Shown one piece after another: positions 12,473-62,017 of a stretch of 62,017 bases of DNA. Below the pieces are notes generated by a model. It searched no databases, was not told the origin of the DNA, and saw only the letters and a program-made list of their open reading frames with translations. A program made the translations under genes and the position numbers. Each line of letters begins with the position of its first letter. Position 1 is the stretch's first letter. Source of the stretch: Candidatus Kuenenia sp. (GTDB lineage: Bacteria > Planctomycetota > Planctomycetia > Planctomycetales > Planctomycetaceae); assembly GCA_043775985.1 (NCBI GenBank), contig JAYVRU010000320.1, forward strand, positions 1 to 62,017. The letters run 5' to 3'.

Positions 12473-13173
12473 ATGAGTCCCTTAAGCTGGCGCTCCAGAA
12501 AACGCAGACCTGCGTGATACCGGCTGCGGACGACGTCATAGCTGAGATCAAGCCGCTCTGCCACGGCTCGCAGAGAAAGTGATTCAAAGAAGCACAGTTG
12601 AAGAATCTGGCGATCCGTCGGATTCGGAATTTCATCCACAGCAGACTGCACCATTCGATCCAGTTCTTCGGATCCGGCAATGGAACTGGGTGATGGTGCA
12701 TCGTCCGCCGGCTCTTGTGCGGTCACAGGGTCACACAAATGATCAGCCGTTTGGTTGAGTCTCGTCATTGGTCCCTCATGGGCACGCCTGGCCGCACGAT
12801 GTGCCGCCTGACGGTTAATCGCGAGCCGTCGTACGAGTTGTTCGATCCATTTGTAGAACATAGCTGCAGTCGATTGATCATCGACTGATCCTTCAAATTG
12901 TGCAAGGCGTTCCCAAAGCCGCAGTGTCGCTTCCTGCGAGAGATCAGATGCGGTTTCTGCCGGAGAAATTTGGAAATCATACCGCTGTGACAACTGCTCC
13001 AAACTGGGCTGAAGTCGCTGCAACAAATCGATCTGTGCCTGACGGTCTCCCGCTTGTGCGCGCCGCACGAGTGCACATAGTCCGTCTGGAAAAATCATGC
13101 GTCTCACCTTCACAAGACAGGGATTCCCCGGAAGCGCGGGAACATTTTTGAGAAATTGTTTTGTGAATTTCAA
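12469..13173 (-). CDS. ECF-type RNA polymerase sigma-70 family factor
   Basis: Region 2-like segment: DLSQEATLRLWERLAQF. Region 4 HTH: LSLRAVAERLDLSYDVVRSRYHAGLRFL. The stop overlaps the kinase start by 4 nt. The real start may be the internal MIFPDGL Met at 13098. Confidence 0.9.
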   Translation of the reverse strand: MKFTKQFLKNVPALPGNPCLVKVRRMIFPDGLCALVRRAQAGDRQAQIDLLQRLQPSLEQLSQRYDFQISPAETASDLSQEATLRLWERLAQFEGSVDDQSTAAMFYKWIEQLVRRLAINRQAAHRAARRAHEGPMTRLNQTADHLCDPVTAQEPADDAPSPSSIAGSEELDRMVQSAVDEIPNPTDRQILQLCFFESLSLRAVAERLDLSYDVVRSRYHAGLRFLERQLKGLI

Positions 13174-13941
13174 TGTTCCTCAGTCGAGCCCGCTTCTGTT
13201 TCCGCCAACATCCGGATGTTACCGAATCAAAGCCTGCCACACCGTCACTGACAGCACGTTATCCCTCAACAAAGCGTCGGGAAATTCGGGGGAGCTTTCA
13301 GCCAGGATCAATTCGAGACCCGGATTTTGTCGTTCGATCGCGATGCGGAGAGGAGCGAGCACTGGGCAAAGTGCCAATCAGCCGTTGGCTCCTGGCCAAA
13401 TGCACAACTCACGAAGTCCGGTTCTCATTCTGAAATTAATTCAGATCTTGTTGTGCCGGGAGCAGGCTCCATTGCTGTCGAGGCTCCGCCAGTCGACATA
13501 CTGGAGACGTTCAGCGAACTGGCGGTCAAAGAGCCTGATCTGATCCGGTTGGTCTTGCAGGCCGCATGTTGGGGCGCTGGTGAATATACAGACTGTGGAA
13601 GGTGCGGACGCTGAAATAAAGAGACGGACTCAAGACCGAGGTTGCGACTAAAAGCATCCTTTGCCGTCGCACTTCTTTCACTTCGCGCTTCATTTCGGTG
13701 TTGAGCCCAATGCGATAAGCCTCATTCCGATTTGACCGCGCACTCAACGAAACAACGCACGCTTTCATACTTATTTTCACCCACAGAGTTTGCGGAGGAT
13801 CCTAAATAAGCGTTACAGCCAGCGTATTCACCGCGCAATATCCCGGAGCAACACCCTCAGTTGATACTTCGCCAGGAACCTGGCCAATTCCGAACACATG
13901 TTTAGGCATCAGGCCCGATTCTCCAGAGGACAGGACCAACA

Positions 13942-19965: not shown

Positions 19966-22401
19966 CTATCTTGCGCGCGTCGGTGGCGCACACGAATGAA
20001 TCATGTGCTTGCGGCCGCCGATGACTTCGTGAAGTGCCGGGCTCTGCAGTCGTGTCATCAGCCTTGCACCACCTCCCTCAGCGGCCCCCTGAAACGCGGT
20101 GTACCGTGCATAAATGTCGAAGTCGCCGCCGATTGTGTAGCCCAGCGAAACGCTGCTGACTCGTGTCGTGACCGCCTTCATCAGCAATCCGCTTTTGGTG
20201 AGCGACACGTCTTTCTCCCACTCGCCGCTTGCCAGTCGAAACAATTCCGGAGGCAATCCGTGCGTGGAAAAATTATGCTGAAACAGTGCATTCAGATGAT
20301 CGCGATCTTTGTCGAGAAAGTCAGACTGCGATCCGGCAAGTTCGTCTTCATCCGTGGTTGGCAGAGTTCGTCGCCAACTGCCTGTCCAGCGAATGTTGCG
20401 AACTCGCAGCCCCTCCTGATCGGCATAGTGAAAGAGTCCGAAGAATCGCTGGTTCGTTGCGGGAAGGGTTTGTTCGGCGATGCGTTCGCCATTGAGACTC
20501 AGTGTGATCACGTCACCACGGAGACTCACTTGCATGCGATTCCATCCGTCCTGCTTCAGCGGCAACGGGATTGAACGCGGCGACAGCGAAGTGAGGTTCG
20601 CCGGATCAGCGGAAGTTTGATCGTAAATTCCATCCGTAAGCTGATGCAGTCCCACAAAGTCATTGTTCAGGATGAAGCACATTCGGTCGATTGCCGGATG
20701 AGCACACTTCGCTCCTGCTTCGTAGTAGAACTCGTATTCGATCGTGCCGTCCTCCAGCATTGGTCGATGATAGTACAACGCTTTTTCGTTCATCGTGCCG
20801 TGGTCAGATGCTGGAAACCGTCGGCCGACGATTTCGTCATCATTCAGACTCCATGTCAGTTGCTCCCACGGATCTTCCACAGCGTAGTAGTCGAACCAGG
20901 AATCCAGCCCGGGGCCGATCAGGTCAATCGTTTCTGGAATCGTTGGTGATCCGGAGATCAGAACGTTTCTTGCACCACCTTCATTGAGGTGTCGGCTGCG
21001 AATCCCAATCCATGGATCTCGAATCTTTCCGAACGTGTCCTGCTGCACCTTGTTTCCGTCAAGCGAAACGTCAGCCGTTTGGCTCTTGATATTTGTTCGA
21101 TGACGATACCAGTGGTCCATGCGGGTCGTCGGTCGCTCAGACTTGAAATCGCCGATTTTGCGACGCACCGTTCCAACAGAATGAAGATCGGCCTGATGAG
21201 CAGTGCCAACCCAGCGTGCGCCGACGATCATCTCCGCTTCGCGCCAGTTTGAAACGGTTGCGTCCGCTTCGAGAGTCAGATCGCCCAGCAATGGCATGTT
21301 GAAGTAGACGGCATCGTCACCATGATTCGCAACATTGATGACCTGAGATCGAGTAAACAGCCATTGAGCAGGCGGCATTCCGACGCCTCGTCTGGCAGCC
21401 AACGGATAAGTGACTGGAGTCCAGAATTTTGGAGCATCGACGATCGACGGAATTTCCTCGAGTGTTTTCGAGGTCAGGTCTTCGATCATCGCGGGCGTCA
21501 TTCGAAACGCAAGCCGGGTGAATTGCCGAGACCAGACGTCCATGTACGTGGGCCATCGTTCCGGGACAAGGACTTGCCGGACGTAATCAGCTATCGCCTC
21601 TTTCAGTTCCGGCGTCGTCGAAGCTTTGAGCATCAACAGCATTTCATCAGCACGGTACTGGCTGTTATGCGGATCACTGGCATTCGTCAGTTTCAAGAAC
21701 GCATCACAGTCCGCCAAAGCATCATCCCTGTTGTTCGCTGCAAGCTCAAAGAGGCACCGAAATGCAGCCAGCTGTTTCTCTTCAAGGCGGTTGCGCGGCT
21801 TGATTTTTGCAACCGCAGTTCGAACCAAGGCCAGCTTGTTCAACTGTGTTGCAGTGTCCAGCAAATCCACGGCCGGACAGATAATCTCTCCACCAGTCGA
21901 AATACGCTGGTCGCCAGCCTCTATTGGTTCGCCTTCTGCCTGTGAGGGATAGGTCGGAGAAAAAGCGAGGTTCAACCGCAGAGAAGTATGAGCGTCGTTC
22001 GGCAGGACCCATTGAGTCAAAAATGTAAATCGATCCTGAGGAGACATCGCCATGGCTCGTTCATGAACCCCCAGCGCCGCGTCAACGACGTGATCCTCAG
22101 CAAAGATCTCGCCAAGAGCGCGAGATCCTGCTTCGGAAGTCTGATCCGCAAACGCTGGCTGTAAGTCGACTTTTGTTCGAGTCACAAGCGTGAGCCGCAA
22201 GCCGCTAGCCGCGTGTACCTGCCTTGTGTCTTCTAAACATTCACCCGCAGCCAGCGCTTTGCGGCTGACAAAAACAAAAGCCTGCGATCCGAAAAGTATG
22301 AGTACGACCACAACGCAGCACATCAAGTGACCACGGCATCTTTGGCACGGGTGATGTGCTTTAATTAACGAACGCAGCCGCAGGAAATTCATGGCGATCA
22401 T
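19966..22401 (-). CDS. Paralogue 1 of 7: secreted DUF1583-like family protein (C-terminally truncated architecture)
   Basis: Family motifs: DRFTFLTQWVLPNDAHTSLRL, GGEIICPAVDLLD, HGDDAVYFNMPLLGDLTLEA, DPWIGIRS, YYHRPMLEDGTIEYEFYYEAGAKCAHPAIDRM, FFGLFHYADQEGLRVRNIRWTGSWRRTLP. Only a partial C-terminal GDFD module follows. Confidence 0.85.
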   Translation of the reverse strand: MIAMNFLRLRSLIKAHHPCQRCRGHLMCCVVVVLILFGSQAFVFVSRKALAAGECLEDTRQVHAASGLRLTLVTRTKVDLQPAFADQTSEAGSRALGEIFAEDHVVDAALGVHERAMAMSPQDRFTFLTQWVLPNDAHTSLRLNLAFSPTYPSQAEGEPIEAGDQRISTGGEIICPAVDLLDTATQLNKLALVRTAVAKIKPRNRLEEKQLAAFRCLFELAANNRDDALADCDAFLKLTNASDPHNSQYRADEMLLMLKASTTPELKEAIADYVRQVLVPERWPTYMDVWSRQFTRLAFRMTPAMIEDLTSKTLEEIPSIVDAPKFWTPVTYPLAARRGVGMPPAQWLFTRSQVINVANHGDDAVYFNMPLLGDLTLEADATVSNWREAEMIVGARWVGTAHQADLHSVGTVRRKIGDFKSERPTTRMDHWYRHRTNIKSQTADVSLDGNKVQQDTFGKIRDPWIGIRSRHLNEGGARNVLISGSPTIPETIDLIGPGLDSWFDYYAVEDPWEQLTWSLNDDEIVGRRFPASDHGTMNEKALYYHRPMLEDGTIEYEFYYEAGAKCAHPAIDRMCFILNNDFVGLHQLTDGIYDQTSADPANLTSLSPRSIPLPLKQDGWNRMQVSLRGDVITLSLNGERIAEQTLPATNQRFFGLFHYADQEGLRVRNIRWTGSWRRTLPTTDEDELAGSQSDFLDKDRDHLNALFQHNFSTHGLPPELFRLASGEWEKDVSLTKSGLLMKAVTTRVSSVSLGYTIGGDFDIYARYTAFQGAAEGGGARLMTRLQSPALHEVIGGRKHMIHSCAPPTRAR

Positions 22402-31484: not shown

Positions 31485-31679
31485 GAGCCACAAGGCGCTA
31501 GCCGCGGATGTTGTATTTAGTCCTACCCGAGTTACTTCCGTTTAACCCGACTCGAAGAGGAGGCAGGGCACTTCATAACCTCCTCTGCGAGTCGGGTTAA
31601 ACAACTCGATGAACACGTGCCTGGCCGCTCGTGTCGTCACATGATTATATCAACACCCGCGGCTAGCGCCTGGCGGCTC
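31485..31679. repeat. Composite element A: REP unit (fwd), 24-bp-stem hairpin, REP unit (rev)
   Basis: Forward unit gagccacaaggcgctagccgcggatg at 31485-31510. Hairpin arms gtttaacccgactcgaagaggagg (31540-31563) and cctcctctgcgagtcgggttaaac (31579-31602), with 1 mismatch. Reverse unit cacccgcggctagcgcctggcggctc at 31654-31679, abutting the stop of paralogue 5. Confidence 0.9.
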
Positions 31680-35394: not shown

Positions 35395-35562
35395 GCGAGC
35401 CTCAAAACGCTTGCGGCCTGTTGATTTTGTCGCTCAATCAGCTGCTGGAGGCTAACCCACGTTTAAATTTGCTGTGTTTTTTTGGCAAAACCGGACGCTA
35501 GCGCGTTCCGGCTGATTTCGGTCGATAATTAATCAACACCCGCGGCTAACGCCTTGCGGCTC
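35395..35562. repeat. REP cluster: degenerate units, a type-2 unit and a type-1 reverse unit
   Basis: Type-2 unit ccggacgctagcgcgttccggctgat at 35491-35516. Type-1 reverse unit cacccgcggctaacgccttgcggctc at 35537-35562. The stretch aatttgctgtgttttt...aaaaccggacgctagcgcgttccggctgatt...aatcaaca is collinear with 56714-56780. Confidence 0.85.
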
Positions 35563-41953: not shown

Positions 41954-41979
41954 GAGCCGTAAGGCGCGAACTGCGGGTG
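41954..41979 (+). repeat. Degenerate solitary REP unit
   Basis: gagccgtaaggcgcgaactgcgggtg differs from the consensus gagccgcaaggcgctagccgcgggtg by 5 mismatches out of 26. Confidence 0.6.
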
Positions 41980-53181: not shown

Positions 53182-53192
53182 TGTAAGTAATT

Positions 53193-53302
53193 GAGCCGCA
53201 AGGCGCTAGCCGCGGGTAATTTCCTTATGTTTTTAAGACTCGCACCCGCAGCTAGCGCTTTGCGGCTCACAAAATCAACAACCTCCTGGCGCCTTGCGGC
53301 TC
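53193..53302. repeat. REPIN-like doublet plus a half unit
   Basis: Forward unit gagccgcaaggcgctagccgcgggta at 53193-53218. After a 24-nt spacer, reverse unit cacccgcagctagcgctttgcggctc at 53243-53268. Half unit tggcgccttgcggctc at 53287-53302. Confidence 0.9.
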
Positions 53303-53331
53303 ACGCGAACACAATTTTCAAAGGATCTCCC

Positions 53332-54666
53332 ATGAACCCTATGATCTCAAGACGCAGATGGATTTCTTCCCTTGCGGCCAGTGTGGCTGGAATTAGTGCG
53401 AGCGGGTGGTTTCCGCTATTGGCTCAGCAGCAATTGGCGGAAGCGAAGAAGAAGTCTCGCCGTGTCATCCTGCTGTGGATGAGCGGCGGGCCATCTCAGA
53501 CGGACACCTGGGACTTAAAGCCGGGGCACGCCAACGGCGGTGAGTTCAAGGAAATCCAAACGGCATCACCTGGGCTGCGATTCAGTGAGCATTTGCCGAA
53601 ACTTGCCGCAATGTCAGACAAACTGGCCGTGCTGCGAGGTCTTTCGACACGTGAAGGCGATCACGGGCGAGGCACCTATTATATGAGAACCGGCTACGCT
53701 CCGATGGGGCCGGTTCGATATCCGAGCATTGGAAGTTCGCTGGCCAATCAATTGGGATCGCCTGAATTTGGCCTGCCCGGCTGCGTCAGTGTCGGAGCAT
53801 TTCGAACGTTTAACGAAGACGCGTTTGGTGCAGGATTTCTGGGCCCAAAAATGCAGCCTTTGATGGTTGGGGCTTCGGACATGACCGGTGCGATGACGAC
53901 CGGTGGCGACGGATTTCCTCAACTTCAAGTCCAGGGAATGACTCGTCCGGCCAGTATTACGGATGTGCGAATGGAAAAACGTCTGAACATGTGGAAGAAC
54001 CTGCAATCGGGTTTTCTGGCCGAACATCAGGCCGGGGCTCCGAAGACTCATAATACGATTTACGAAAGTGCCGTGAGGCTGATGAACAGCAAGGACGCCG
54101 AGGCCTTTGATCTTTCAAAAGAACCAATCGAACTGCGTGAAGCGTACGGACGCAACGTTTTTGGACAGGGTTGCTTGTTAGCTCGGCGATTGATCGAACA
54201 GGGCGTATCATTCGTGGAAGTGTCCCTCGGGACCAGCAGCGGCGGAGCGGGCTGGGATACTCATACGGATAACTTTAATGCAGTGAAAGCTCTGTCCACG
54301 GATCTCGACAACGGCTGGGCGACGCTGATGAAGGACCTATCCGATCGCGGCCTGTTGGAATCGACCACGATTCTTTGGATGGGCGAGTTCGGCCGGACTC
54401 CTCAAATCAACGGTACTAATGGACGTGACCATTTTCCTGCCGCCTGGTCTGCTGTGCTCGCCGGAGCGGGTATCGCTGGTGGTCAGGCGTATGGCCGAAC
54501 CAGTGACAGTGGCATGGCTGTGGAAGACGGGCAGATGAGTGCCGAAGATCTGCTGGCAACCTTGTGCATGGCAGCCGGTGTGGAAGAGAAAGCCACGCAG
54601 ATCGATGACAACGGGCGGCCCATTCGAATCACAGAAGGAGTGGCCGCTAAAGCCGTGTTAGCGTGA
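53332..54666 (+). CDS. DUF1501 (sulfatase-like fold) protein with Tat-type signal
   Basis: The N-terminus MNPMISRRRWISSLAASVAGISA looks like a twin-arginine signal. Family motifs: VILLWMSGGPSQTDTWDLKPG, REGDHGRGTYYMRTG, GAGWDTHTDNF, WMGEFGRTPQINGTNGRDHFP. The track start at 53191 (TTG) lies inside REP units (peptide SRKALAAG), so I prefer ATG 53332 with AAAGGA 7 nt upstream. Confidence 0.9.
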   Translation: MNPMISRRRWISSLAASVAGISASGWFPLLAQQQLAEAKKKSRRVILLWMSGGPSQTDTWDLKPGHANGGEFKEIQTASPGLRFSEHLPKLAAMSDKLAVLRGLSTREGDHGRGTYYMRTGYAPMGPVRYPSIGSSLANQLGSPEFGLPGCVSVGAFRTFNEDAFGAGFLGPKMQPLMVGASDMTGAMTTGGDGFPQLQVQGMTRPASITDVRMEKRLNMWKNLQSGFLAEHQAGAPKTHNTIYESAVRLMNSKDAEAFDLSKEPIELREAYGRNVFGQGCLLARRLIEQGVSFVEVSLGTSSGGAGWDTHTDNFNAVKALSTDLDNGWATLMKDLSDRGLLESTTILWMGEFGRTPQINGTNGRDHFPAAWSAVLAGAGIAGGQAYGRTSDSGMAVEDGQMSAEDLLATLCMAAGVEEKATQIDDNGRPIRITEGVAAKAVLA

Positions 54667-54678
54667 ATGTCCGTCGGT

Positions 54679-54829
54679 GAGCCGCAAGGCGCTAGCCGCG
54701 GGTGCAGTTGATCGTTTAACCCGACTCGAAGAGGAGGTTGGCAATCAGCTCCTCCTCTTCGAGTCGGGTCAAACGAAAACGGTCAATGTGTGATGAAAAC
54801 AAACACCTGCGGCTAGCGCCTTGCGGCTC
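54679..54829. repeat. Composite element B: REP unit (fwd), 24-bp-stem hairpin, REP unit (rev)
   Basis: Forward unit at 54679-54704. Hairpin arms gtttaacccgactcgaagaggagg (54714-54737) and cctcctcttcgagtcgggtcaaac (54751-54774). Reverse unit cacctgcggctagcgccttgcggctc at 54804-54829. The architecture and hairpin arm sequence are the same as at 31485-31679. Confidence 0.9.
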
Positions 54830-54844
54830 AATTGAAAAAATAAT

Positions 54845-56644
54845 ATGCAGCCTTTCCATTCTATAATCAAATTTTTGAAGCGTCTCGCGATAGTCGGACT
54901 GCTTTCACTCGCAGCATTCTCAGCCGCACAGGCTGACGAAAACGAACTCACTGTCCCTGTGCGAATTCTCGGCGCTCCGGCTCCCGAACCAGCGATGGGG
55001 CCGATGATGGTGGCACGCGAAGAAGCACCGCCGGCGACTCCTGCTGCGAAGATGCCGCAATATCAGTTGCATCATAAGGATCTCGGCGATCTTGGCGACC
55101 CGTCGTCGCCGCACATTCGATTCGTGCTCGCGCTGCCCGAAAAGCCTCTGCTGATCGAAGCCGCAATCTTCATTGATGGCCAGCCGTTTCGACAGGCTCG
55201 GGAAAAACGAGTTCAGGAGATCATGCGGTACATCTCCGATCCCGTTGCCTTCAACGCCGAAGCGGCAAAGATTGCAGCGGAAGCTCAAGCGGCTGCTACT
55301 GCCGCTGAGGCGACGAAGAAACTGGGGCTTTTGGAATCAGTCGTCAACCTAGTGACCGGCAACGAGGCAGCAGCCGAAACAACTCCGCAAGTCACACCGG
55401 AAAAAGATCAAACGCCTGCTCCAGAAGAAGCGACTCCGGATGCAAAGGCCGAGGCAGTCGAAACACCAGATCCTGCAGAAGAAAAGCCAGAAGCCGCGAC
55501 TCCAGAGCCCGAGACGCCCGCTGAACCAGTTGTTCCGGCAACGCCCAAATACTCGGCACCTGCCACGATCTACGAACGCATCGAACGTTACACAAAATCT
55601 ACCGGCACGCCGCCGAGCGTCGATGAAGTTCGATGGTTGCTCACAAACTGGGTGGATGGCCCGTTGCTGTTGTTCCTGAACGACAACTTCCAGCGTTTCC
55701 GAGCCGACCAGCAGCCTGTATTCAAAGTCCTTGATCGAGATCGCGACGGCATCGTGTCGGCTGACGAATTGACAAAGGCCGTCGCGGCGTTTCAGGAATG
55801 CGATCTCAATCGTGACGACATGGTCGATGCCACCGAACTTGCTGAGGCGGCGAAAGATGTTCGCGATCAGCCAACGAATTCAACGGGCAAGCTGATCTTC
55901 CGCCTTCCTGATGAGAAAACCGCGACTGTTTTTCTGCGTCGCGTGGCAGCTCACTATGTGGCTCCGGATGCAAAGTTACCAACACCGCCGCAGTTCGATC
56001 CGGACAGCGATGGTGTCCTGTCTCCTGAAGAACTCAAGCAACTCCAGGAACGCCCGGCCGACGTTCGTTTAAAGATCGAACTGACGACCGGCCAGCCGGA
56101 AGCATCTCGATTGACCATCGACGGATTCAGCGACGAGTTTGCCGGACTGAGGGACTCGACGAAGAAGAATCCATCGAGCATGACGCTCAACTTCCCGTCG
56201 TTCAATCTGGAATTTCTGGCCGCACAAGGAGCCAGCAGCGATCAAATTTCAATAGGAGCTGTCAATGACGGCTACGCCATGCTTCAGGAAATCGATCCGA
56301 ATGCCGACGGTCGATTTTCGATCCGCGAGCTGCGGCAGTTGAATGAACGCCTCGCAGCTTTTGATCAGAATTCCGACGGACAAATTGGATCCGGTGAGAC
56401 TCATCCGACGTTTCGAGTCTGCATCGGCCTGGGACCGACGGCCCATCAGCCGCTGGCGTTGTTGCGTGAAATCAATTCACCGAGCGCGGCAGCTCAGGAA
56501 CCTGGCCCGGATTGGTTCATAGAGATGGATAAGAACAAGGATTACGATTTAACTCGCCAGGAGTTTCCTGGCACAGACGAACAGTTTAAGCAGCTTGATA
56601 GTGATGACGATGAATTGATCAGTTCTGTAGAAGCCAATAAATGA
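54845..56644 (+). CDS. Secreted multi-EF-hand-like (Ca-binding loop) protein with a Pro/Glu/Ala-rich linker
   Basis: Signal-like N-terminus: IVGLLSLAAFSAAQA. The linker reads ...PEEATPDAKAEAVETPDPAEEKPEAATPEPETPAEPVVPATP. Seven D-x-(D/N)-x-D-type loops are present: DRDRDGIVSADEL, DLNRDDMVDATEL, DPDSDGVLSPEEL, DPNADGRFSIRELRQL, DQNSDGQIGSGE, DKNKDYDLTRQEF, DSDDDELISSVE. Confidence 0.8.
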   Translation: MQPFHSIIKFLKRLAIVGLLSLAAFSAAQADENELTVPVRILGAPAPEPAMGPMMVAREEAPPATPAAKMPQYQLHHKDLGDLGDPSSPHIRFVLALPEKPLLIEAAIFIDGQPFRQAREKRVQEIMRYISDPVAFNAEAAKIAAEAQAAATAAEATKKLGLLESVVNLVTGNEAAAETTPQVTPEKDQTPAPEEATPDAKAEAVETPDPAEEKPEAATPEPETPAEPVVPATPKYSAPATIYERIERYTKSTGTPPSVDEVRWLLTNWVDGPLLLFLNDNFQRFRADQQPVFKVLDRDRDGIVSADELTKAVAAFQECDLNRDDMVDATELAEAAKDVRDQPTNSTGKLIFRLPDEKTATVFLRRVAAHYVAPDAKLPTPPQFDPDSDGVLSPEELKQLQERPADVRLKIELTTGQPEASRLTIDGFSDEFAGLRDSTKKNPSSMTLNFPSFNLEFLAAQGASSDQISIGAVNDGYAMLQEIDPNADGRFSIRELRQLNERLAAFDQNSDGQIGSGETHPTFRVCIGLGPTAHQPLALLREINSPSAAAQEPGPDWFIEMDKNKDYDLTRQEFPGTDEQFKQLDSDDDELISSVEANK

Positions 56645-56793
56645 GCCGCAAGGCGCTAGCTGCGGGTGTTGATCTAGTCTGTTTATCAGCCGCCGGGCGC
56701 TAGCCCCCGGTTGAATTTGCAGTGTTTTTGTACCGAAAACTGGACGCTAGCGCGTTCCGGCTGATTAAATCAACAGCCCGCTAGCCGCGGGTG
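56643..56793. repeat. REP cluster (type-1 fwd, variant, type-2, truncated type-1)
   Basis: gagccgcaaggcgctagctgcgggtg at 56643-56668, overlapping the TGA of the EF-hand gene. cagccgccgggcgctagcccccggtt at 56687-56712. ctggacgctagcgcgttccggctgat at 56740-56765. cagcccgctagccgcgggtg at 56774-56793. Confidence 0.85.
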
Positions 56794-56805
56794 CTGATTT
56801 GAAAT

Positions 56806-56943
56806 GGCGAGCGGGGGATGTGAATCCCCTGATAGATCGTTCTGGCAACACGCCCCAATCACTTGAATACCACGAACTCATGCACAAATAGAATCACATA
56901 ATCGCAGGAATCACAATCAGGGGACTGACGTCCCCCGCTCGCC
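56806..56943. mobile_element. MITE-like element or second REPIN family: 28-nt terminal inverted repeats around an 82-nt core
   Basis: Left end ggcgagcgggggatgtgaatcccctgat (56806-56833). Right end atcaggggactgacgtcccccgctcgcc (56916-56943). They are complementary at 25 of 28 positions. Each end also carries its own small hairpin (GGGGA-N6-TCCCC; GGGGAC-TGAC-GTCCCC). Confidence 0.6.
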
Positions 56944-56951
56944 AAACTCAA

Positions 56952-56977
56952 CGCCCGCAGCTAGCGCCTTGCGGCTC
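56952..56977 (-). repeat. REP type-1 unit (reverse)
   Basis: cgcccgcagctagcgccttgcggctc, 22 nt upstream of the MoxR ATG. Confidence 0.85.
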
Positions 56978-56998
56978 ACTTGTTGGAATAAAATTGAT

Positions 56999-58084
56999 AT
57001 GAATCGAATCGACTCCCACCTTGCAACAGACCGAACCCGCACAGGCAGCGACAACGGGCACGCGAAGGCTCCGATAGTGGAGAATTCTCAGGACGTCGCC
57101 GAAGCGATCGACGCCATGCACGAGCGGTTCGTGGAGCTGCGAAGGCAGCTTGCGGGCGTGATTGTGGGGCAGGATGAAGTCGCCGAACAACTCCTGATCG
57201 CGATGCTCTGCAAAGGTCACTGTATCCTGCAGGGGATGCCGGGGCTCGCGAAGACAATGCTCGTGTCGACCATGGCGTCGCTGATCGATCTGTCGTTTCG
57301 ACGAGTCCAGTTTACTCCCGACCTGATGCCGGGCGACATCACTGGCACTGAGGTTTTGCAGGAAGACCAGACAACGGGCAAGCGAGTCTTCCAATTCATC
57401 GAAGGGCCATTGTTCGGCAACGTGATTCTGGCCGATGAAATCAATCGCACACCGCCGAAGACTCAGAGTGCTCTCCTGGAAGCGATGCAGGAACGCCAGT
57501 TGACCGTGTGTGGCAAGACGTACAAGCTTCCGGATCCGTTCTTCGTTCTTGCGACGCAGAATCCAGTGGAGACTGAAGGCACGTATCCGCTGCCGGAAGC
57601 TCAGCTGGACCGATTCCTGCTGAAGATCCATGTGAAGTATCCATCCCGCGCGGAAGAACTTGAGATCGCTCGTCGCCAGACAACGGACTATAGCTTCAAG
57701 ACGAAAACGGTCATTGATATCGACCACATGCACGCGATGCAGTCGCTGGTTCGCAACGTGGTTGTCGCGGATCATGTTTACGAAGCAGCGCTGGATCTTG
57801 TGCGAGGAACTCGGCCTGACGAAGGTTCCATGGCGGCCGATCTTCAGAGTCTCATCCAATGGGGCGCGGGGCCTCGTGCGACGATTGCACTGCTGCTGGC
57901 CGCGAAGGCTCGTGCATTGCTGAACCGTCGATGTCATGCGACGACGGCGGATCTGGCTGCGGTTGCGTTGCCGGTGTTACGGCATCGAGTGATCCTGACG
58001 TTTAATGCCGAAGCCGCCGGGATCGATGCAGATTCAGTGCTGAACAGAATTCTGGAGAATACGAAGTCGTTGCAAAAGGCCTAA
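56999..58084 (+). CDS. MoxR-family AAA+ ATPase
   Basis: Walker A GMPGLAKT and Walker B VILADEINR, plus ATQNPVETEGTYPLPEAQLDRF and the C-terminal GAGPRATIALLLAAKARALL. I prefer ATG 56999; the track TTG at 56969 lies inside a REP unit. Confidence 0.95.
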   Translation: MNRIDSHLATDRTRTGSDNGHAKAPIVENSQDVAEAIDAMHERFVELRRQLAGVIVGQDEVAEQLLIAMLCKGHCILQGMPGLAKTMLVSTMASLIDLSFRRVQFTPDLMPGDITGTEVLQEDQTTGKRVFQFIEGPLFGNVILADEINRTPPKTQSALLEAMQERQLTVCGKTYKLPDPFFVLATQNPVETEGTYPLPEAQLDRFLLKIHVKYPSRAEELEIARRQTTDYSFKTKTVIDIDHMHAMQSLVRNVVVADHVYEAALDLVRGTRPDEGSMAADLQSLIQWGAGPRATIALLLAAKARALLNRRCHATTADLAAVALPVLRHRVILTFNAEAAGIDADSVLNRILENTKSLQKA

Positions 58085-58094
58085 GGAAAGTACA

Positions 58095-59051
58095 ATGTTC
58101 CGTCTCTTTCGATCAAAACCGAATCCTCCGACACCCGCTCCGGGTGCTGCGGTGGGGTACGCTTCGGAATTGATTGATCCGAAGGTGATGGAGCAGATCG
58201 GCTATCTTGAGTTGCTGTCGAGAACCGTGGTCGATGGTCTGCTGGCAGGCAAGCATCGATCCACGACAAAGGGCGGATGTTGCGAGTTCGCTCAGCATCG
58301 CCAGTATGCTCCGGGCGACGAGATTCGCCAGATCGACTGGCAGGTGTTCGCTCGCAACGACAAGTACTTTATCAAGCAGTTTGAAGAAGAAACCAATCTC
58401 CACGCTGTGATGGCGCTCGACACCAGTGGGTCAATGAAGTTTGGCTTATCGACGGTGAGCAAGCTCGATTACGCTCGCCAGGCGGCGGCGTGCATTTCTC
58501 GTATGTTGCTGCGACAGCGAGATGCCGTCGGTACGGCGATCCTGAATGAGCAGACTCCAATGTTTCTGCCGCCGAAACAGAACGCCGCCCATCTGCAGGC
58601 GATCCTGTCGACTCTTTCCGCTGCGAAGCCATCGAATGGTGGTTCTCTTGCGACTCAGATTCGCGCTATGGTGCCGCGGATGCGTCGAAGGGGGCTGTTT
58701 GTTCTGTTCTCGGATTGTTTTGGGGATCTTGATGAACTTTCGACATCGCTTCGCATCGTTCGGGCACGAGGTCATGACGTGGTTGTGATGCATGTGCTCG
58801 CACCTGAGGAAATTCATTTCGTTTTCCGGCACTGGTCGTCGTTTCAGTCGCTGGAAGTTGCCGGACATCGCATGAATCTCGATCCGGCAGCGATTCGAGA
58901 TGAGTATCTAAAACGCATTCGGGCCTTCGTGGAGAAACTGGAAAGCATCGTCACGGGGCTCGGAGGTGACTATGTGAGGATGACGACGAACAAAGATCTG
59001 GCGGAAACGCTGGGATGGTTTTTGCGGCAACGTGCGGCAAGGTCGATTTAA
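58095..59051 (+). CDS. DUF58 family protein (vWA-like, MoxR partner)
   Basis: HRSTTKGGCCEFAQHRQYAPGDEIRQIDWQVFARNDKYFIKQFEEETN is the DUF58 signature. It starts 10 nt after the MoxR stop. Confidence 0.9.
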   Translation: MFRLFRSKPNPPTPAPGAAVGYASELIDPKVMEQIGYLELLSRTVVDGLLAGKHRSTTKGGCCEFAQHRQYAPGDEIRQIDWQVFARNDKYFIKQFEEETNLHAVMALDTSGSMKFGLSTVSKLDYARQAAACISRMLLRQRDAVGTAILNEQTPMFLPPKQNAAHLQAILSTLSAAKPSNGGSLATQIRAMVPRMRRRGLFVLFSDCFGDLDELSTSLRIVRARGHDVVVMHVLAPEEIHFVFRHWSSFQSLEVAGHRMNLDPAAIRDEYLKRIRAFVEKLESIVTGLGGDYVRMTTNKDLAETLGWFLRQRAARSI

Positions 59052-59066
59052 GGACCAATCACCAAC

Positions 59067-61346
59067 GTGGGTTTTCTGAGTATCACATTTCTGGTCGCTT
59101 TGCCTTTAGCATTGGCACCGATTCTATTGCACTTGTTTGATCGTCGACGCAATGTCACGATCGAGTGGGGAGCGATGGAATTCCTGCTGGATGCCGCCAC
59201 GCGCCGGACGAGTGCTCGAAAGCTCAAGCAATGGCTGTTGCTGGCTCTGCGAGTCCTCGCGATCGCCGCGTTGGTGCTGGCGCTGGCAAGACCGAAACTG
59301 CCGGGGCATTGGTTCGGAAACAACGATCGAGGCGAAACAGTTTTTGTCATCGACAATTCGATGTCCACGCTTCGCGAATCGGAAGACTCGACGCTCTTCG
59401 CAAAACTCATTGTACGTGCGACCACAGAACTGAATGCGATGCCGTCTGGCGACACTGTTCGCATTCTGCTGGCGTCACCTTATCCGGTGTGGGCGACGGC
59501 CGGGGATTTGCGAGTTGACTCAGGCTCGCGAGACATGCTTGCCGAGCAGCTTAAGGAGATCCGTCCAACTAATGGAAGCAGTGATCTGCTGGCGGCGATG
59601 TTTACAGCCGTGCAGGCGGATTCAGAACAGAAGACTGAAAAGCGTCGCATCATTTTGCTCACCGATGGTCAGGCGGCGGACTGGAAAACGGCGGATACCA
59701 GCGGCTGGCAGCGATTTCAGGAAGTACTCAAGTCGGCAATTGTTCCGACTCAACTGGACGTGATTGAACTGAACGCGAAAACTGCCAAGTCGACAAATAT
59801 CGCGGTGAACACGCTACGATCGAATCGCCTGGTAACGGGCATCGATCAGACGTTCACAGTCACCGCGCAGATTCAGAATCACTCGGCCGTCGATTCTCCG
59901 GGCTGCACGGTCTCGTGGCAGGTCGGAACGCATGAAGAACAGACGGCCGAAGTTCCATCGTTGACCGGCGGCAATACACATGAAGCTGTTTGGCGTCATT
60001 CGTTTTCAAAGCCGGGCGTCTATTCACTTTCTTGCCAACTCAAAGCAGATGACAATCTCGCGCCCGACAACCGCGCGACGGTTGTGATTGAAGTCATCGA
60101 AGAAGTGCCGGTGCTCGTCGTTGAAAGCGCAGCGGGCCAGGCAGAACTTCAGCAGGATGCATTCTTTCTTCAGGCCGCGATGGGATGGATCAACGGCGAA
60201 GCGATGGCGGCTCACAGTGTCTACCGACCGGTCACTGTCAGCCCTGATCAATTGGAAGGCATGAGTCTGGCTGAGTACCGAGCCGTCATTATCCCAAACT
60301 TCACAGCGATCTCGGAACGGTCGGTTGCAGAGCTGAAGGCTTTCGCATTCAACGGTGGCGGCGTCTGGATTGCGCTTGGTCCGCGAGCCGACATCGAAAT
60401 GTTCAACCAGTACGTGTTTGCTCATGGTGACGGATTGTCTCCGCTTGCCATTGATGGGATCGTCGCTGAGCAAAGTGCCGATGCCGCTCCGAAGATCAAT
60501 GCCGGGTTGCGAGAGCATCCGGCGACGATGGCTTTGGCAGACAACGAAAAGCTGGACACGAGCGATATTCGAGTCCGTCGTCGATTTCGATTTGTGCCGC
60601 CTCCACGTGATGAAGATGTGTCGGCCTTGTTGAGTCTTACCAACGGCGAATCGCTGGCGGTCGAAAAGTATGTTGGGCAGGGACGAGTCATCGTGCTGGG
60701 CATTCCTTTAACGATGCGCGACTGGAGTGAGCTGGCGAAGTCTCAGGCGTTTGTTGTGATGGTGCAGGATTGGGTGGCGTATCTGACTCAGCCTCAGGCG
60801 ACGCGGCATAATCTTTCGCCCGGTGACCCTATTTCCGTGCATCTTGCTGAGACCGATAACCGCGACGCGTTTCTGAAAACGCCACACGGTGACCAGATCG
60901 AACTGACGGCCGACACGGTTCCTGATGGAGTCATCTTTCGCTCAAGCCGGACAATTTTGCCAGGGGATTACAGCTTGCAGTTGGGTCTTTCGGGAGATTC
61001 CATCCCGTTTCATGTGCAGCGAAATCCGAAGGAGTCGAATCTCACAGGGCTTTCCGACGAGGATCACAAGCTTCTCGCGGATACGGCTGGCTTGAGTGGC
61101 AGTTTGTTAAATCCGAATCTGAGCAGTACCAGTCAGAGCGATCCAGTCTGGCCGATGCTGTTGATGATGTTGATCGCGTTTATGAGTTTTGAACTGATTC
61201 TGTCTGGAATGATTTCTCGCGAACGTTTCGGCACTGCCGCGATCTCGGAGACATCGGAGAGAATTGGCGACGCCGGTTTTTGGATGCCGGTAGAGTTTGG
61301 GAAGAAGACCGTCTCCCGTGAGCCGCAAGGCGCTAGCCGCGGGTGA
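59067..61346 (+). CDS. BatA-N / von Willebrand A domain membrane protein
   Basis: GTG start. The N-terminal double-TM aerotolerance-type motif is FLSITFLVALPLALAPILLHLFDRRR...EWGAMEFL. The vWA MIDAS motif DxSxS is VFVIDNSMST. There is a C-terminal TM (VWPMLLMMLIAFMSFELILSGMI). The last 9 codons (REPQGASRG*) are encoded by the REP unit at 61320-61345. Confidence 0.9.
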   Translation: MGFLSITFLVALPLALAPILLHLFDRRRNVTIEWGAMEFLLDAATRRTSARKLKQWLLLALRVLAIAALVLALARPKLPGHWFGNNDRGETVFVIDNSMSTLRESEDSTLFAKLIVRATTELNAMPSGDTVRILLASPYPVWATAGDLRVDSGSRDMLAEQLKEIRPTNGSSDLLAAMFTAVQADSEQKTEKRRIILLTDGQAADWKTADTSGWQRFQEVLKSAIVPTQLDVIELNAKTAKSTNIAVNTLRSNRLVTGIDQTFTVTAQIQNHSAVDSPGCTVSWQVGTHEEQTAEVPSLTGGNTHEAVWRHSFSKPGVYSLSCQLKADDNLAPDNRATVVIEVIEEVPVLVVESAAGQAELQQDAFFLQAAMGWINGEAMAAHSVYRPVTVSPDQLEGMSLAEYRAVIIPNFTAISERSVAELKAFAFNGGGVWIALGPRADIEMFNQYVFAHGDGLSPLAIDGIVAEQSADAAPKINAGLREHPATMALADNEKLDTSDIRVRRRFRFVPPPRDEDVSALLSLTNGESLAVEKYVGQGRVIVLGIPLTMRDWSELAKSQAFVVMVQDWVAYLTQPQATRHNLSPGDPISVHLAETDNRDAFLKTPHGDQIELTADTVPDGVIFRSSRTILPGDYSLQLGLSGDSIPFHVQRNPKESNLTGLSDEDHKLLADTAGLSGSLLNPNLSSTSQSDPVWPMLLMMLIAFMSFELILSGMISRERFGTAAISETSERIGDAGFWMPVEFGKKTVSREPQGASRG

Positions 61347-61445
61347 GTGCAAGAGAAATTAAAAAGTATAAGTAGAACAAGACTTTTCCAAATGAATCAT
61401 AAGAACAGGTTCAGACAGGTACCCGCGGCTAGCGCCCGGCGGCTC
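61320..61445. repeat. REPIN-like doublet (fwd 61320-61345, rev 61420-61445, 74-nt spacer)
   Basis: gagccgcaaggcgctagccgcgggtg ... tacccgcggctagcgcccggcggctc. Confidence 0.9.
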
Positions 61446-61986
61446 GGAAACGGAAACAGGCAATCATGATTGAACGGGGCACCTACTTCATCACATGGAC
61501 GACATATGGTACGTGGTTACCGGGCGATGAAAGTGGCTGGAGAAAGCACGGTGAAAGCGTAAAGCCGCCACAACCGCGACTCGAGGAATGGTGTCGCGAG
61601 CAGATGACAGGAGAGCCAGTGGTGTTGACGGAGTTACAACGAAAGAAGGTCGAATCGGTTTGCTATGAACATGCTGAGCATCGACGGTGGGAACTGCATG
61701 CGGTGAATGCTCGAACCAATCATGTCCATTTGGCTGTGACGGCAGACCAGGCTTCGAAGACAGTGCGTGATCAGTTCAAGGCCAATGCAACTCGGGTTCT
61801 TCGTTTGGAGCCTGAACCAATGACCGCGGGAATAATTTGGACAAAGGGTGGGGATGTTGAAATTGTTGATGGCGAACAGGATCTTGAGAATGTTGTGAAA
61901 TACATAGTCGAAGCGCAGGACAGAATGGATCGTGGTAAATGAGCCACAGGTAGGTCTGGTGAGCCGCAAGGCGCTAGCCGCGGGTG
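61420..61986 (+). mobile_element. RAYT-like gene bracketed by inverted REP units
   Basis: The reverse REP unit ends 20 nt before the ATG (61420-61445). The forward REP unit starts 18 nt after the stop (61961-61986). A further reverse unit starts at 62010 and is cut by the window end. Confidence 0.75.
61466..61942 (+). CDS. HUH / Y1 (IS200-IS605-type) transposase-like protein, candidate REP-associated tyrosine transposase (RAYT)
   Basis: 158 aa. The N-terminus is YFITWTTYGTWLPGD. The HUH motif is NHVHLAV. The C-terminal Tyr motif is VVKYIVEAQD. The gene is single and carries no TnpB-like partner. Confidence 0.8.
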   Translation: MIERGTYFITWTTYGTWLPGDESGWRKHGESVKPPQPRLEEWCREQMTGEPVVLTELQRKKVESVCYEHAEHRRWELHAVNARTNHVHLAVTADQASKTVRDQFKANATRVLRLEPEPMTAGIIWTKGGDVEIVDGEQDLENVVKYIVEAQDRMDRGK

Positions 61987-62017
61987 AATGTCAGAAAAAC
62001 GTGCACAGACACCCGCG
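61961..62017. repeat. REP doublet truncated by window end
   Basis: Forward unit gagccgcaaggcgctagccgcgggtg at 61961-61986. The start of a reverse unit, cacccgcg, lies at 62010-62017. Confidence 0.8.

Follow-up and report, generated by a model that had tools for sequence, protein, structure and literature searches.

The question raised by this locus is whether the REP units dispersed through the window (the whole stretch of 62,017 nt that was analysed) have their cognate enzyme encoded beside some of them at its edge. To our knowledge, studies of REP/RAYT systems have been almost confined to Proteobacteria. We consider that the REP family dispersed in this planctomycete chromosome probably has its cognate enzyme encoded by the gene at 61466..61942, namely a class 3 TnpAY1 in a REPtron-like locus. 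Support for this reading comes from the fold and catalytic residues of the protein, the covariation within the hairpin, the enrichment of units around the gene, the match between flanking and dispersed variants, and the variants specific to individual paralogues.

The N-terminal string YFITWTTYGTWLPGD, the HUH motif NHVHLAV and the C-terminal VVKYIVEAQ are all present in the 158-aa ORF exactly as a preliminary description of this DNA had claimed. The key residues are H86 and H88 of the HUH motif, W125, the catalytic Y146 and Q151, and their conservation was examined in 81 homologues: H86 was found in 81/81, H88, W125 and Y146 each in 80/81, and Q151 in 79/81, and the residue directly after W125 was T, A or S in 81/81 (WT in this protein). 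In one homologue alignment, the N-terminal positions F8, T10-Y14, G15, D21 and G24-K27 are invariant, and over all 81 sequences Y14, G15, D21, G24 and W25 are present in 81/81. The Pfam profile PF01797 (Y1_Tnp) matches residues 53-148 at 34.8 bits, above its cutoff of 23, and in sequence comparison the HUH motif and Tyr align with those of the solved IS608 and Sulfolobus IS200 transposases; the Y1_Tnp match and the catalytic Tyr expected from the first reading of the DNA were thus both found. Because a PDB sequence search gave marginal E-values (0.005-0.1), a fold search was required to confirm the Y1 family. For the AlphaFold2 model (pLDDT 74.6, pTM 0.70), ranks 1-30 of a Foldseek search against PDB consisted solely of IS200, IS608 and ISDra2 TnpA and the RAYT 4er8 (E 6e-5 to 2e-3, TM 0.5-0.67). 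The profile, the HUH/Tyr/Gln set and the ferredoxin-like HUH fold by which the Y1 HUH superfamily is recognized are therefore all found in this protein. The family annotation of the gene is inconsistent, being 'transposase', 'IS200-like' or 'RayT'.

The REP unit is a 25-nt sequence, GAGCCGCAAGGCGCTAGCCGCGGGT (top strand, GGTGAGCCGCAAGGCGCTAGCCGCGGGTGAA), laid out as 5'-(G)TGAGC box, CCGC, AA bulge, GGC, [GCTA] loop, GCC and GCGG-3', and the units are usually paired as convergent, REPIN-like doublets. Copies with up to 3 mismatches number 13 in the window against 0.00 expected from 100 shuffles, those with up to 5 mismatches number 16, and a covariance model (CM) gives 17-20 units. All the copies in the window are intergenic and lie between co-directional genes, at roughly one doublet per 9 kb, and scans of the window for Rfam families and tRNAs gave no match. 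Some units extend over the stop codon of an adjacent gene, which is relevant to annotation. The hairpin of a single unit is thermodynamically weak (-7.1 kcal/mol; z -1.0 for one copy and -0.1 for another), and this predicted structure draws its support entirely from comparison, that is, from covariation.

The preliminary description had placed a reverse REP unit ending 20 nt upstream of the ATG and a forward unit starting 18 nt downstream of the stop, and both copies of GAGCCGCAAGGCGCTAGCCGCGGGT are where it had put them (Table 1), so that the observation on the gene and its flanking units is confirmed. Its picture of two bracketing units stands as to their presence and inverted orientation, but they are not single, each being the inner arm of a convergent, REPIN-like doublet. 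The left arm of the upstream doublet also codes for the final 9 codons and the stop of a BatA/VWA ORF, and the region 61315-61450 containing this doublet folds with -34.2 kcal/mol (z -7.0). On the downstream side, the forward unit folds into the predicted bulged hairpin, and the 8 nt of a reverse unit at the window end are presumed to be the right arm of its doublet; the spacing of 24 nt between the unit at 61961 and the start at 62010 resembles that of the doublet 53193/53244. Because the flanking units are doublet arms, the locus layout is [+ -] gene [+ -].

Table 1. Positions of the Y1 gene and of REP units in the window
Feature	Position	Strand	Basis
Class 3 Y1 HUH endonuclease / transposase-like gene	61466..61942	+	158 aa, ATG start
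REP unit, left arm of upstream doublet	61320..61344	+	CM 44.3 bits
REP unit, right arm of upstream doublet, box end towards gene	61421..61445	-	2 mismatches; CM match 61418-61448, 27.8 bits
Relic 5' half of REP unit, TGAGCCACAGG	61940..61950	+	begins at the gene's stop codon; read from sequence
REP unit, left arm of downstream doublet	61961..61985	+	0 mismatches; CM 42.3 bits
First 8 nt CACCCGCG of reverse REP unit	62010..62017	-	truncated by window end
Degenerate convergent REP doublet	22192..22267	.	CM 22.3 and 17.0 bits
Convergent REP doublet, intergenic	31485..31679	.	unit scan + CM
Full reverse REP unit (35538-35562) and partial reverse unit (35487-35510), intergenic	35487..35562	-	unit scan + CM
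Degenerate single REP unit	41954..41978	+	4 mismatches; CM 14.7 bits, weak
Convergent REP doublet (REPIN-like), intergenic	53193..53268	.	unit scan + CM; one long hairpin, -30.4 kcal/mol, z -7.3
Convergent REP doublet, intergenic	54679..54829	.	unit scan + CM
REP cluster (units 56643+, 56687+, 56953-), intergenic	56643..56977	.	unit scan + CM

Evidence that the gene and the repeat belong together comes from the relatives. The homologue set comprises 80 loci of 20 kb each from 74 planctomycete assemblies, six of which give two divergent copies each. Hairpin units at these loci have a 5' GTGAGC box, a bulged 7-bp stem and a GCTA loop; the box was (G)TGAGC in 58 representative units, with foot variants [GC]TGA[GA]C that are mostly GTGA or CTGA. 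Over the 80 loci, units number 3.7 per kb up to 500 nt from the gene and 0.095 per kb elsewhere, a 39-fold difference in density, as counted by our own pattern scanner, which agrees with the CM on the window. At most homologue loci, both flanks carry units of this kind as inverted copies. When 63 loci were compared, REP-type units were present on both sides of the gene in 38 and the exact (-, +) bracket in 14, this being the commonest arrangement but not a universal one, and 11 lacked any unit in the 300 nt to either side when the strict scanner was used. An intact unit begins at the gene's stop position in 17/79 loci, so that the TGA of its box doubles as the stop codon. In two loci (L071 and L052), near-identical tandem arrays of units or doublets are present on both sides of the gene, as expected of an enzyme acting in cis. 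The family profile matches 1,251 clusters (50% identity) at E<=1e-10, the labels obtained for distant members are only Planctomycetota and Phycisphaerales, and the association between gene and REP units, maintained throughout the phylum, is an ancient one, extending across Planctomycetaceae and Pirellulaceae.

A comparison of synteny around the homologues was largely negative. Only the closest genome (L006) has the upstream BatA-like gene in common with the window, and matches to DUF1501 and PSD1 genes, which belong to multi-copy planctomycete families, are uninformative as to synteny. Among the neighbours of homologues no conserved partner gene was found, the 10 downstream neighbours include no OrfB/TnpB, the neighbouring genes are unrelated housekeeping genes, and searches of plasmid and phage collections with the gene gave no match. 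Multiple identical copies with IS ends, which the preliminary description had named as the mark of an ordinary IS, were not found; with whole genomes scanned in part, there are 1-2 divergent copies per genome.

Changes in the stem of the predicted hairpin are compensatory from one genome to another. Among stem cells of the aligned units, 93% are paired, compared with 78% in shuffles, and 58 are altered on both sides, compared with 20. The covariation score is 0.335 against 0.088 in shuffles, with 0/500 shuffles as high, and it collapses when the stem partners are slid. Because the scanner demanded a 3-bp stem adjoining the loop, 3 of the 7 stem pairs were partly preselected, and the covariation is found mainly in the 4 pairs outside this preselection.

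The variant of the unit, moreover, goes with the gene. Units more than 1 kb from a gene differ from the units flanking that same gene by a mean of 3.1 mismatches, 26/77 being identical, and from the flanks of other loci by a mean of 8.0. Where a genome carries two paralogues (49-70% identical), the two differ in the stem variant at their flanks, as seen in 4/4 informative genomes; the pairs L055/L058 and L009/L024, for example, have CCG-A-CGGC and CGGC-AA-GGC stems. Protein distance and REP distance are correlated (Mantel r = 0.60, 0/2000 permutations as high), a correlation that shared phylogeny alone could produce. The co-variation of flanking and dispersed units that had been put forward as a check was thus observed, and the proposal that the enzyme of this REP family is encoded at the window edge is supported by the 39-fold enrichment and by the match between the flanking and dispersed variants.

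We next consider to which known class the enzyme belongs. Class 3 TnpAY1 was described from 24 proteins, including ADG69454.1, ABJ87398.1 and ABQ56422.1, together with manual inspection (Quentin, Siguier, Chandler, Fichant 2018, BMC Genomics 19:475; PMC6006769). Its hosts are mainly planctomycetes, in which a REPtron-like context had already been noted, with a reach into Acidobacteria and Legionella, and the class, resembling both IS and REPtron, was proposed in 2018 to comprise possible intermediates between IS200 and domesticated REP systems (PMC6006769). By motifs, taxon and REP architecture, and with the published class 3 proteins compared by description, the present protein fits class 3, and the assignment of the gene as a new member of this class, a kind already reported in 2018 (PMC6006769), is well supported. 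Shared characters are the NHVH form of the HUH motif, W[TA] (here WT), the Y-x4-Q spacing of the Tyr motif, and an extra conserved N-terminus, the published profile being about 155 aa long and the present protein 158 aa, with FITWTTYG...PGD.RGWRK invariant. In both, several weak, atypical hairpins without a GTAG tag lie beside the gene and also occur dispersed through the genome, in a REPtron-like manner. The supplementary tables include REPs assigned to class 3 from Legionella, P. limnophilus and Solibacter (PMC6006769), and the unit of P. limnophilus, CACGAGCCGGAAGCGTGAGCGACGGGT, is built like ours, with an xGAGC box, a CCG...CGG outer stem, an internal bulge, a short inner stem and a G..A tetraloop; the core GCGCTAGC of our units is absent from the units in those tables. 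The present family differs from the published class in its Tyr motif, YI[VLTN]EAQ instead of the consensus YV[VI][AENY]EQ, in its loop, GCTA instead of GTNA, and in its foot, which is mostly GTGA or CTGA instead of CnGA, CTGA fitting CnGA and GTGA doing so only loosely.

RAYT or TnpA-REP proteins constitute class 2, represented by E. coli YafM (PDB 4ER8; Nunvar 2010, Bertels & Rainey 2011, Ton-Hoang 2012). The present system resembles them in having a low-copy Y1 HUH gene amid units of its own REP family, a single REP variant for each paralogue, intergenic and dispersed units in inverted REPIN/BIME-like doublets, and a fold that matches 4er8 with TM 0.52. It differs in phylum, in the lack of YIxxNP and of the GT[AG]G tag of the REP, and in its short, bulged hairpin. 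The NCBIfam model REP_Tyr_transpos (NF047646) gives the protein 19.2 bits where 80 are required, and the Tyr motif reads YIVEAQ, not YIxxNP, so that a canonical RAYT of class 2 was rejected. The idea of a planctomycete RAYT therefore holds for the REP association, the low copy number and the single REP type per paralogue, but not for class 2 membership by sequence, and the comparison with the RAYT subgroup profile that had been suggested gave a negative result.

The best sequence and fold matches are to class 1, the IS200/IS605 TnpA proteins (IS608, ISDra2 and Sulfolobus IS200; PDB 2a6m, 2xm3, 2f4f), with which the protein has in common a catalytic constellation of HUH, W, Y and Q, a Tyr motif ending in Q and, presumably, a single-strand chemistry that recognizes hairpins. 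The differences are the Tyr spacing (Y-x4-Q here, Y-x3-Q there), a class-specific N-terminal insertion of about 40 aa, and a gene that is not multi-copy, lacks tnpB and is accompanied by commonly inverted hairpins far outnumbering it. With the NCBIfam IS200 equivalog NF033573 the protein reaches 28.7 of the 55 bits required, and a canonical IS200 was also rejected.

Taking IS608 TnpA and E. coli TnpA-REP as models, we infer the following mechanism for binding of REP units, the site of cleavage and mobilisation by the enzyme. The protein would bind the small bulged hairpin in single-stranded DNA, for example on the lagging-strand template, and would read the shape of the hairpin together with the conserved 5' box. 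Y146 would then cleave adjoining the box to form a 5'-phosphotyrosine, with the metal held by H86, H88 and Q151, and rejoining of the strands may excise, copy or amplify REP units or doublets in trans. The enzyme would act preferentially in cis, beside its own gene, and the gene itself would remain low in copy number.

Other explanations should be weighed against a cognate enzyme. The locus could be an ordinary autonomous IS of the IS200/IS605 type, whose left and right ends are the flanking hairpins and whose MITE-like derivatives or solo ends are the dispersed repeats. Its Tyr motif is of the Y-x-Q type like that of class 1 and not YIxxNP, its top sequence and fold matches are IS200/IS608 transposases, its gene end is fused to a unit at 17/79 loci as a subterminal IS end would be, its position is non-syntenic between distant genomes, and class 3 has been likened to both IS and REPtron by Quentin et al. 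(PMC6006769). We nevertheless judge an ordinary IS to be unlikely: the IS200 equivalog score is below the cutoff, each 20-kb locus carries a single copy and each genome 1-2, and an identity of no more than 49-70% between paralogues means that there are no recent gene copies. The commonest orientation of the flanks is inverted, whereas IS200/IS605 ends are direct, the REP units far outnumber the gene, and tnpB is lacking in a neighbourhood of housekeeping genes, without matches in plasmid or phage collections.

It is also conceivable, at a low probability, that the repeats are regulatory or structural elements of the host, such as intercistronic terminators, mRNA stabilisers or nucleoid-protein sites, which are kept by selection or gene conversion and which would serve a domesticated Y1 protein solely for binding or regulation, for example autoregulation, without being mobilised by it. 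The 39-fold concentration, the near-identical tandem arrays and the paralogue-specific variants are predicted by an enzyme-driven process and not by a general terminator function, no Rfam family is matched, and the intact HUH, Tyr and Gln set in about 80/81 homologues argues for retained cleavage chemistry, although the location of all window copies between co-directional genes, the very stable hairpins of the doublets, which could act in RNA, and the overlap of units with stop codons of adjacent genes would suit host elements, and mobility has not been observed directly. Mere coincidence, with a common repeat flanking a degenerate remnant of a transposase by accident, has a negligible probability. 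With a repeat as frequent as this one is in the window (a doublet about every 9 kb), chance will place units beside some genes; the enrichment over 80 independent loci, the units in both flanks and the fixed gene-unit junction in 17 loci refute a coincidental adjacency, and an intact reading frame has been conserved along with the catalytic residues.

If the protein is the cognate enzyme, one may further ask whether the planctomycete class 3 REPtrons go back to a Y1 transposase that was domesticated independently of the proteobacterial RAYTs and throughout the phylum, a possibility that we regard as rather doubtful at present. Were it true, the gene-terminal unit with the stop codon in its box would be the master copy, and a cis-preferring enzyme would build tandem arrays at its own gene before units disperse. 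The specificity code of the stem would co-evolve with the protein and be readable from paralogue pairs, giving a clean natural system for hairpin choice by HUH enzymes within the proposed missing link between IS200 and REP. What is new relative to the main text of PMC6006769 is the enrichment statistics, the covariation, the paralogue-specific variants, the stop-codon fusion and the flanking tandem arrays. Together with its 80 relatives, the locus indicates a tight, ancient and specific association, with tandem amplification beside the gene in some genomes, and it supplies oligonucleotide substrates and natural specificity swaps for biochemistry.

The 158-aa ORF singled out in the preliminary description is present with an ATG start near the 3' end of the window, and its three quoted motifs (YFITWTTYGTWLPGD, NHVHLAV and VVKYIVEAQ) were all found. 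The proposed assignment to the Y1 family was borne out by a match to Pfam Y1_Tnp (PF01797; 34.8 bits, above the gathering cutoff of 23). Weak HMMER alignments with the solved transposases of IS608 and Sulfolobus IS200 place the HUH histidines on NHVH, the conserved Trp on IWT and the catalytic-Tyr/Gln helix on VKYIVEAQ, the catalytic Tyr being in exact register only with the Sulfolobus protein and one residue off with IS608. An AlphaFold2 model built from a 21-sequence alignment (mean pLDDT 74.6, pTM 0.70; residues 16-33 a low-confidence loop) retrieved in the top 30 of a Foldseek search of the PDB only Y1 transposases (IS200, IS608, ISDra2) or the E. coli REP-associated transposase 4er8, and the match after these was 20-fold worse. 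Among 81 homologues, the catalytic set is kept (H86 in 81, H88, W125 and Y146 in 80, Q151 in 79), as is the N-terminal class-specific block (Y14, G15, D21, G24 and W25, each in 81). On the basis of the profile match, alignments, fold matches and residue conservation, the enzyme is predicted very probably to be catalytically competent.

The gene was also claimed to be bracketed by inverted REP units, and a 25-nt unit GAGCCGCAAGGCGCTAGCCGCGGGT does lie on each side of it at the positions and on the strands proposed (see table); these are not lone units, however, but each is an arm of a REPIN-like doublet. Because the units in the window mainly form convergent pairs (a + unit, then a - unit), and because CACCCGCG, which opens a reverse unit truncated by the window end, follows 24 nt past the downstream unit, the true layout is (+ -) gene (+ -). 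With up to 3 mismatches the unit has 13 copies in the window, against 0 in 100 dinucleotide-preserving shuffles, and with up to 5 mismatches 16; a covariance model gives 17-20 units. Every copy sits between the long ORFs; the unit of the window reads CCGC-AA-GGC-[GCTA]-GCC-GCGG. The hairpin of a lone unit is thermodynamically ordinary (-7.1 kcal/mol and z -1.0 in one copy, z -0.1 in another); doublets fold with -30 to -34 kcal/mol (z about -7). Rfam and tRNA scans found no Rfam families or tRNAs in the window.

Coordinates of the gene, REP units (window unit scan) and associated features in the window and at loci of relatives
Sequence	Feature	Position	Strand	Remark
Window	158-aa Y1 gene	61466-61942	+	
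Window	25-nt REP unit	61421-61445	-	ends 20 nt 5' of ATG
Window	25-nt REP unit	61961-61985	+	starts 18 nt 3' of stop
Window	Convergent unit pair	22192/22243	+/-	
Window	Convergent unit pair	31485/31655	+/-	
Window	Convergent unit pair	53193/53244	+/-	
Window	Convergent unit pair	54679/54805	+/-	
Window	Convergent unit pair	56643/56953	+/-	
Window	Convergent unit pair	61320/61421	+/-	upstream of gene
Window	BatA/VWA ORF, 759 aa	59067-61346		
Window	REP unit within ORF end	61320-61346		
Window	Co-directional gene block	50650-61346		upstream of gene
L071	27-nt unit arrays	9659-9800 and 10522-11198		both sides of gene
L071	GTAG-tagged palindromes	11267-11365		
L052	Doublet arrays	9263-9941 and 10463-11169		both sides of gene
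L076	Arrays, 45-nt period	about 9575-10720		both sides of gene
L005	Type I restriction-modification	11680-13842		adjoins gene
L021	Type I restriction-modification	10921-12273		adjoins gene

The co-directional block upstream (PSCyt2/PSD1 (DUF1549/DUF1553), DUF1501, an EF-hand protein and a MoxR(AAA_3)-DUF58-BatA/VWA operon) has the gene content of a typical planctomycete chromosome and carries REP doublets in nearly all intercistronic gaps. A REP unit encodes the last 9 codons and stop of the BatA/VWA ORF (C-terminal residues ...R-E-P-Q-G-A-S-R-G*), and the alignment with the syntenic orthologue of this ORF at locus L006 stops at residue 747; it therefore seems that a REP insertion took the place of this gene's 3' end.

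A word-indexed protein search gave at least 850 homologues of the 158-aa protein, the named ones all from Planctomycetota (Gimesia, Planctomycetaceae); JGI annotates them under the generic COG heading 'REP element-mobilizing transposase RayT'. When 1.84 billion representatives were searched exhaustively with a profile, 2,493 clusters (50% identity) passed E<=1e-3 and 1,251 passed E<=1e-10, and the few names recovered there were Planctomycetota and Phycisphaerales. For comparison of loci we used the best 80 of 151 relatives from a one-genome-per-species scan (L001-L080; 74 assemblies of Planctomycetaceae and Pirellulaceae, six of which give two copies). None of these loci has a second gene copy within 20 kb, and the plasmid and phage collections searched contained no copy.

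Most loci carry, in both 250-nt gene flanks, an inverted repeat of 20-35 nt with one common plan: a 5' box (G/C)TGA(G/A)C, an outer stem of 3-4 bp, a 5'-side bulge of 1-3 nt, an inner stem of 3-5 bp and a GCTA loop, rarely GCAA or GTTA. The stem is CGGC-AA-GGC-[GCTA]-GCC-GCCG in many Planctomycetaceae and CCG-A-CGGC-[GCTA]-GCCG-CGG in many Pirellulaceae, with TGGC/GCCA, GGGC/GCCC, AGGC/GCCT, ACGC/GCGT, ATGC/GCAT and GTGC/GCAC as further inner-stem variants. In 58 representative units, standard pairs fill 93.1% of cells (77.7% in shuffles), both sides have changed in 58 cells (20 in shuffles), and covariation scores 0.335 where shuffles give 0.088, 0 of 500 shuffles attaining the observed value; sliding the 3' partners by 1-3 columns made all these measures collapse. 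Since the unit scanner demanded three Watson-Crick pairs beside the loop, those pairs were preselected, and the informative covariation is that of columns 9:27, 10:26 and 14:25, which were not, together with 15:24, which was. At L067, L077 and L078 we found a REP variant, GAGCCTGAGGCGCTAGCCGAT, that is without the 3' half of the outer stem and could form an alternative hairpin, GCC-TGA-GGC.

Over all loci, unit density is 3.70/kb within 500 nt of the gene against 0.095/kb elsewhere, a 39-fold enrichment. When the nearest unit within 300 nt per side was taken at 63 loci with the strict scanner, the (-, +) arrangement of the window was the commonest (14 loci), followed by (+, -) in 10, (-, -) in 8 and (+, +) in 6; units stood on both sides at 38 loci, and 11 had none. 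Adjacent units are more often convergent (94 pairs) than divergent (29). At 17 of 79 loci the stop TGA of the gene is also the box TGA of an intact forward unit, and in the window a relic half unit, TGAGCCACAGG, occupies the matching place, with a complete unit after it. The 3' end of the ORF runs into a reverse unit at L038, L053, L055 and L079, where the stop codon falls within that unit (such as the TAG in the loop GCTAGC) and the C-terminus of the enzyme gene is reshaped by REP insertions. Long tandem arrays of near-identical copies flank the gene at L071 (5.3 and 25.1 copies of a 27-nt unit, 99-100% identity), L052 (a doublet of roughly 100 nt, present 6.8 and 7.1 times) and L076, which suggests amplification in cis beside the enzyme gene.

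Dispersed units agree with those at their own gene, a co-variation that the preliminary description had named as a check: units more than 1 kb away average 3.1 mismatches to the flanking units of their own gene and 8.0 to the flanks of other loci, and 26 of 77 such units are identical to their own flanking units and 48 are within 2 mismatches. Protein distance and REP distance are correlated (Mantel r = 0.60; 0 of 2000 permutations as high), a correlation that shared ancestry alone could produce. A sharper test is given by genomes with two paralogues (49-70% identical), since in all four informative cases each paralogue has a different stem variant, e.g., CCG-A-CGGC at L055 and CGGC-AA-GGC at L058. 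The sole syntenic orthologue of the gene, at L006 (BatA-like gene upstream; protein 69% identical), has a unit variant with compensatory stem changes.

The mechanism of IS608 TnpA and of E. coli TnpA-REP is established (structures 2vjv and 4er8). By analogy, the 158-aa protein would bind single-stranded DNA at the bulged hairpin and read the conserved box next to it; cleavage would be by Y146, with the metal held by H86, H88 and Q151, and religation would move or duplicate units and doublets. Such an active, cis-biased process would fit the units being near-identical within a genome and divergent between genomes, as well as the stem variants that differ between paralogues and the tandem arrays next to the gene.

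As to the identity of the enzyme, an ordinary insertion sequence, of which multiple identical copies had been named as the mark, is unlikely: no near-identical copies were found at the loci compared, the curated NCBIfam IS200 equivalog is missed (28.7 bits; cutoff 55), and tnpB is absent from the ten downstream neighbours examined, which are unrelated genes (PKD protein, carbamoyltransferase, HsdR, acetyl-CoA synthetase, methyltransferase, M48 peptidase, HsdS, sulfatase, fucosidase). The commonest flanking hairpins, inverted rather than direct, also speak against it. A canonical RAYT by sequence is ruled out by the REP_Tyr_transpos equivalog (19.2; cutoff 80). The Y1 family has been divided into class 1 (IS200/IS605), class 2 (TnpA-REP/RAYT) and a small class 3 of 24 sequences (11 planctomycete), characterised by the HUH motif NHVH, the W motif W[TA], the Tyr motif YV[VI][AENY]EQ (Y----Q) and an extended N-terminal conservation in a 155-aa profile (Quentin, Siguier, Chandler and Fichant, 2018; PMC6006769). 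Compared by description, the 158-aa protein fits all these published features, apart from the identity of the residues that separate Y and Q. Class 3 genes are described there as having weak, atypical hairpins on their flanks, which also occur dispersed in the genome, with about 600 copies in Solibacter. Class 3 units in Table S1 of that paper, such as CCGAGCCGCGACCGTAAGGGAGCGGA (Legionella) and CACGAGCCGGAAGCGTGAGCGACGGGT (P. limnophilus), share their architecture with the window unit: an xGAGC box, an outer CCG...CGG stem, an internal bulge, a short inner stem and a tetraloop of the form G..A.

The observation in the preliminary description is confirmed and its interpretation as a candidate planctomycete RAYT supported, in that a Y1 gene has a REP family that is probably its cognate one; the protein has class 3 features, not the canonical RAYT profile. 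By its features, the locus is probably an instance of the already known, barely characterised class 3, unsurprising to specialists knowing the 2018 classification; our literature search found no later paper on this class. The comparative evidence on the loci makes the question of class 3 as an 'IS-to-REPtron intermediate' directly testable.

Type I restriction-modification genes (HsdR-like, HsdS-like) adjoin the gene at L005 and L021, an adjacency that, in two of the ten neighbours examined, is probably a coincidence. The GTAG-tagged REPs reported from the PVC superphylum, including Planctomycetes (Di Nocera et al., 2013; PMC3733652), are another REP type than the window unit. At L071, a 33-nt GTAG-tagged palindrome (GTAGTGGATCTTGTCAAAGATCC...), a canonical GTAG-type REP, is repeated three times in tandem right next to the class 3 array, and we therefore propose that a further REP system, possibly one of class 2 RAYT type, may be present in this genome.
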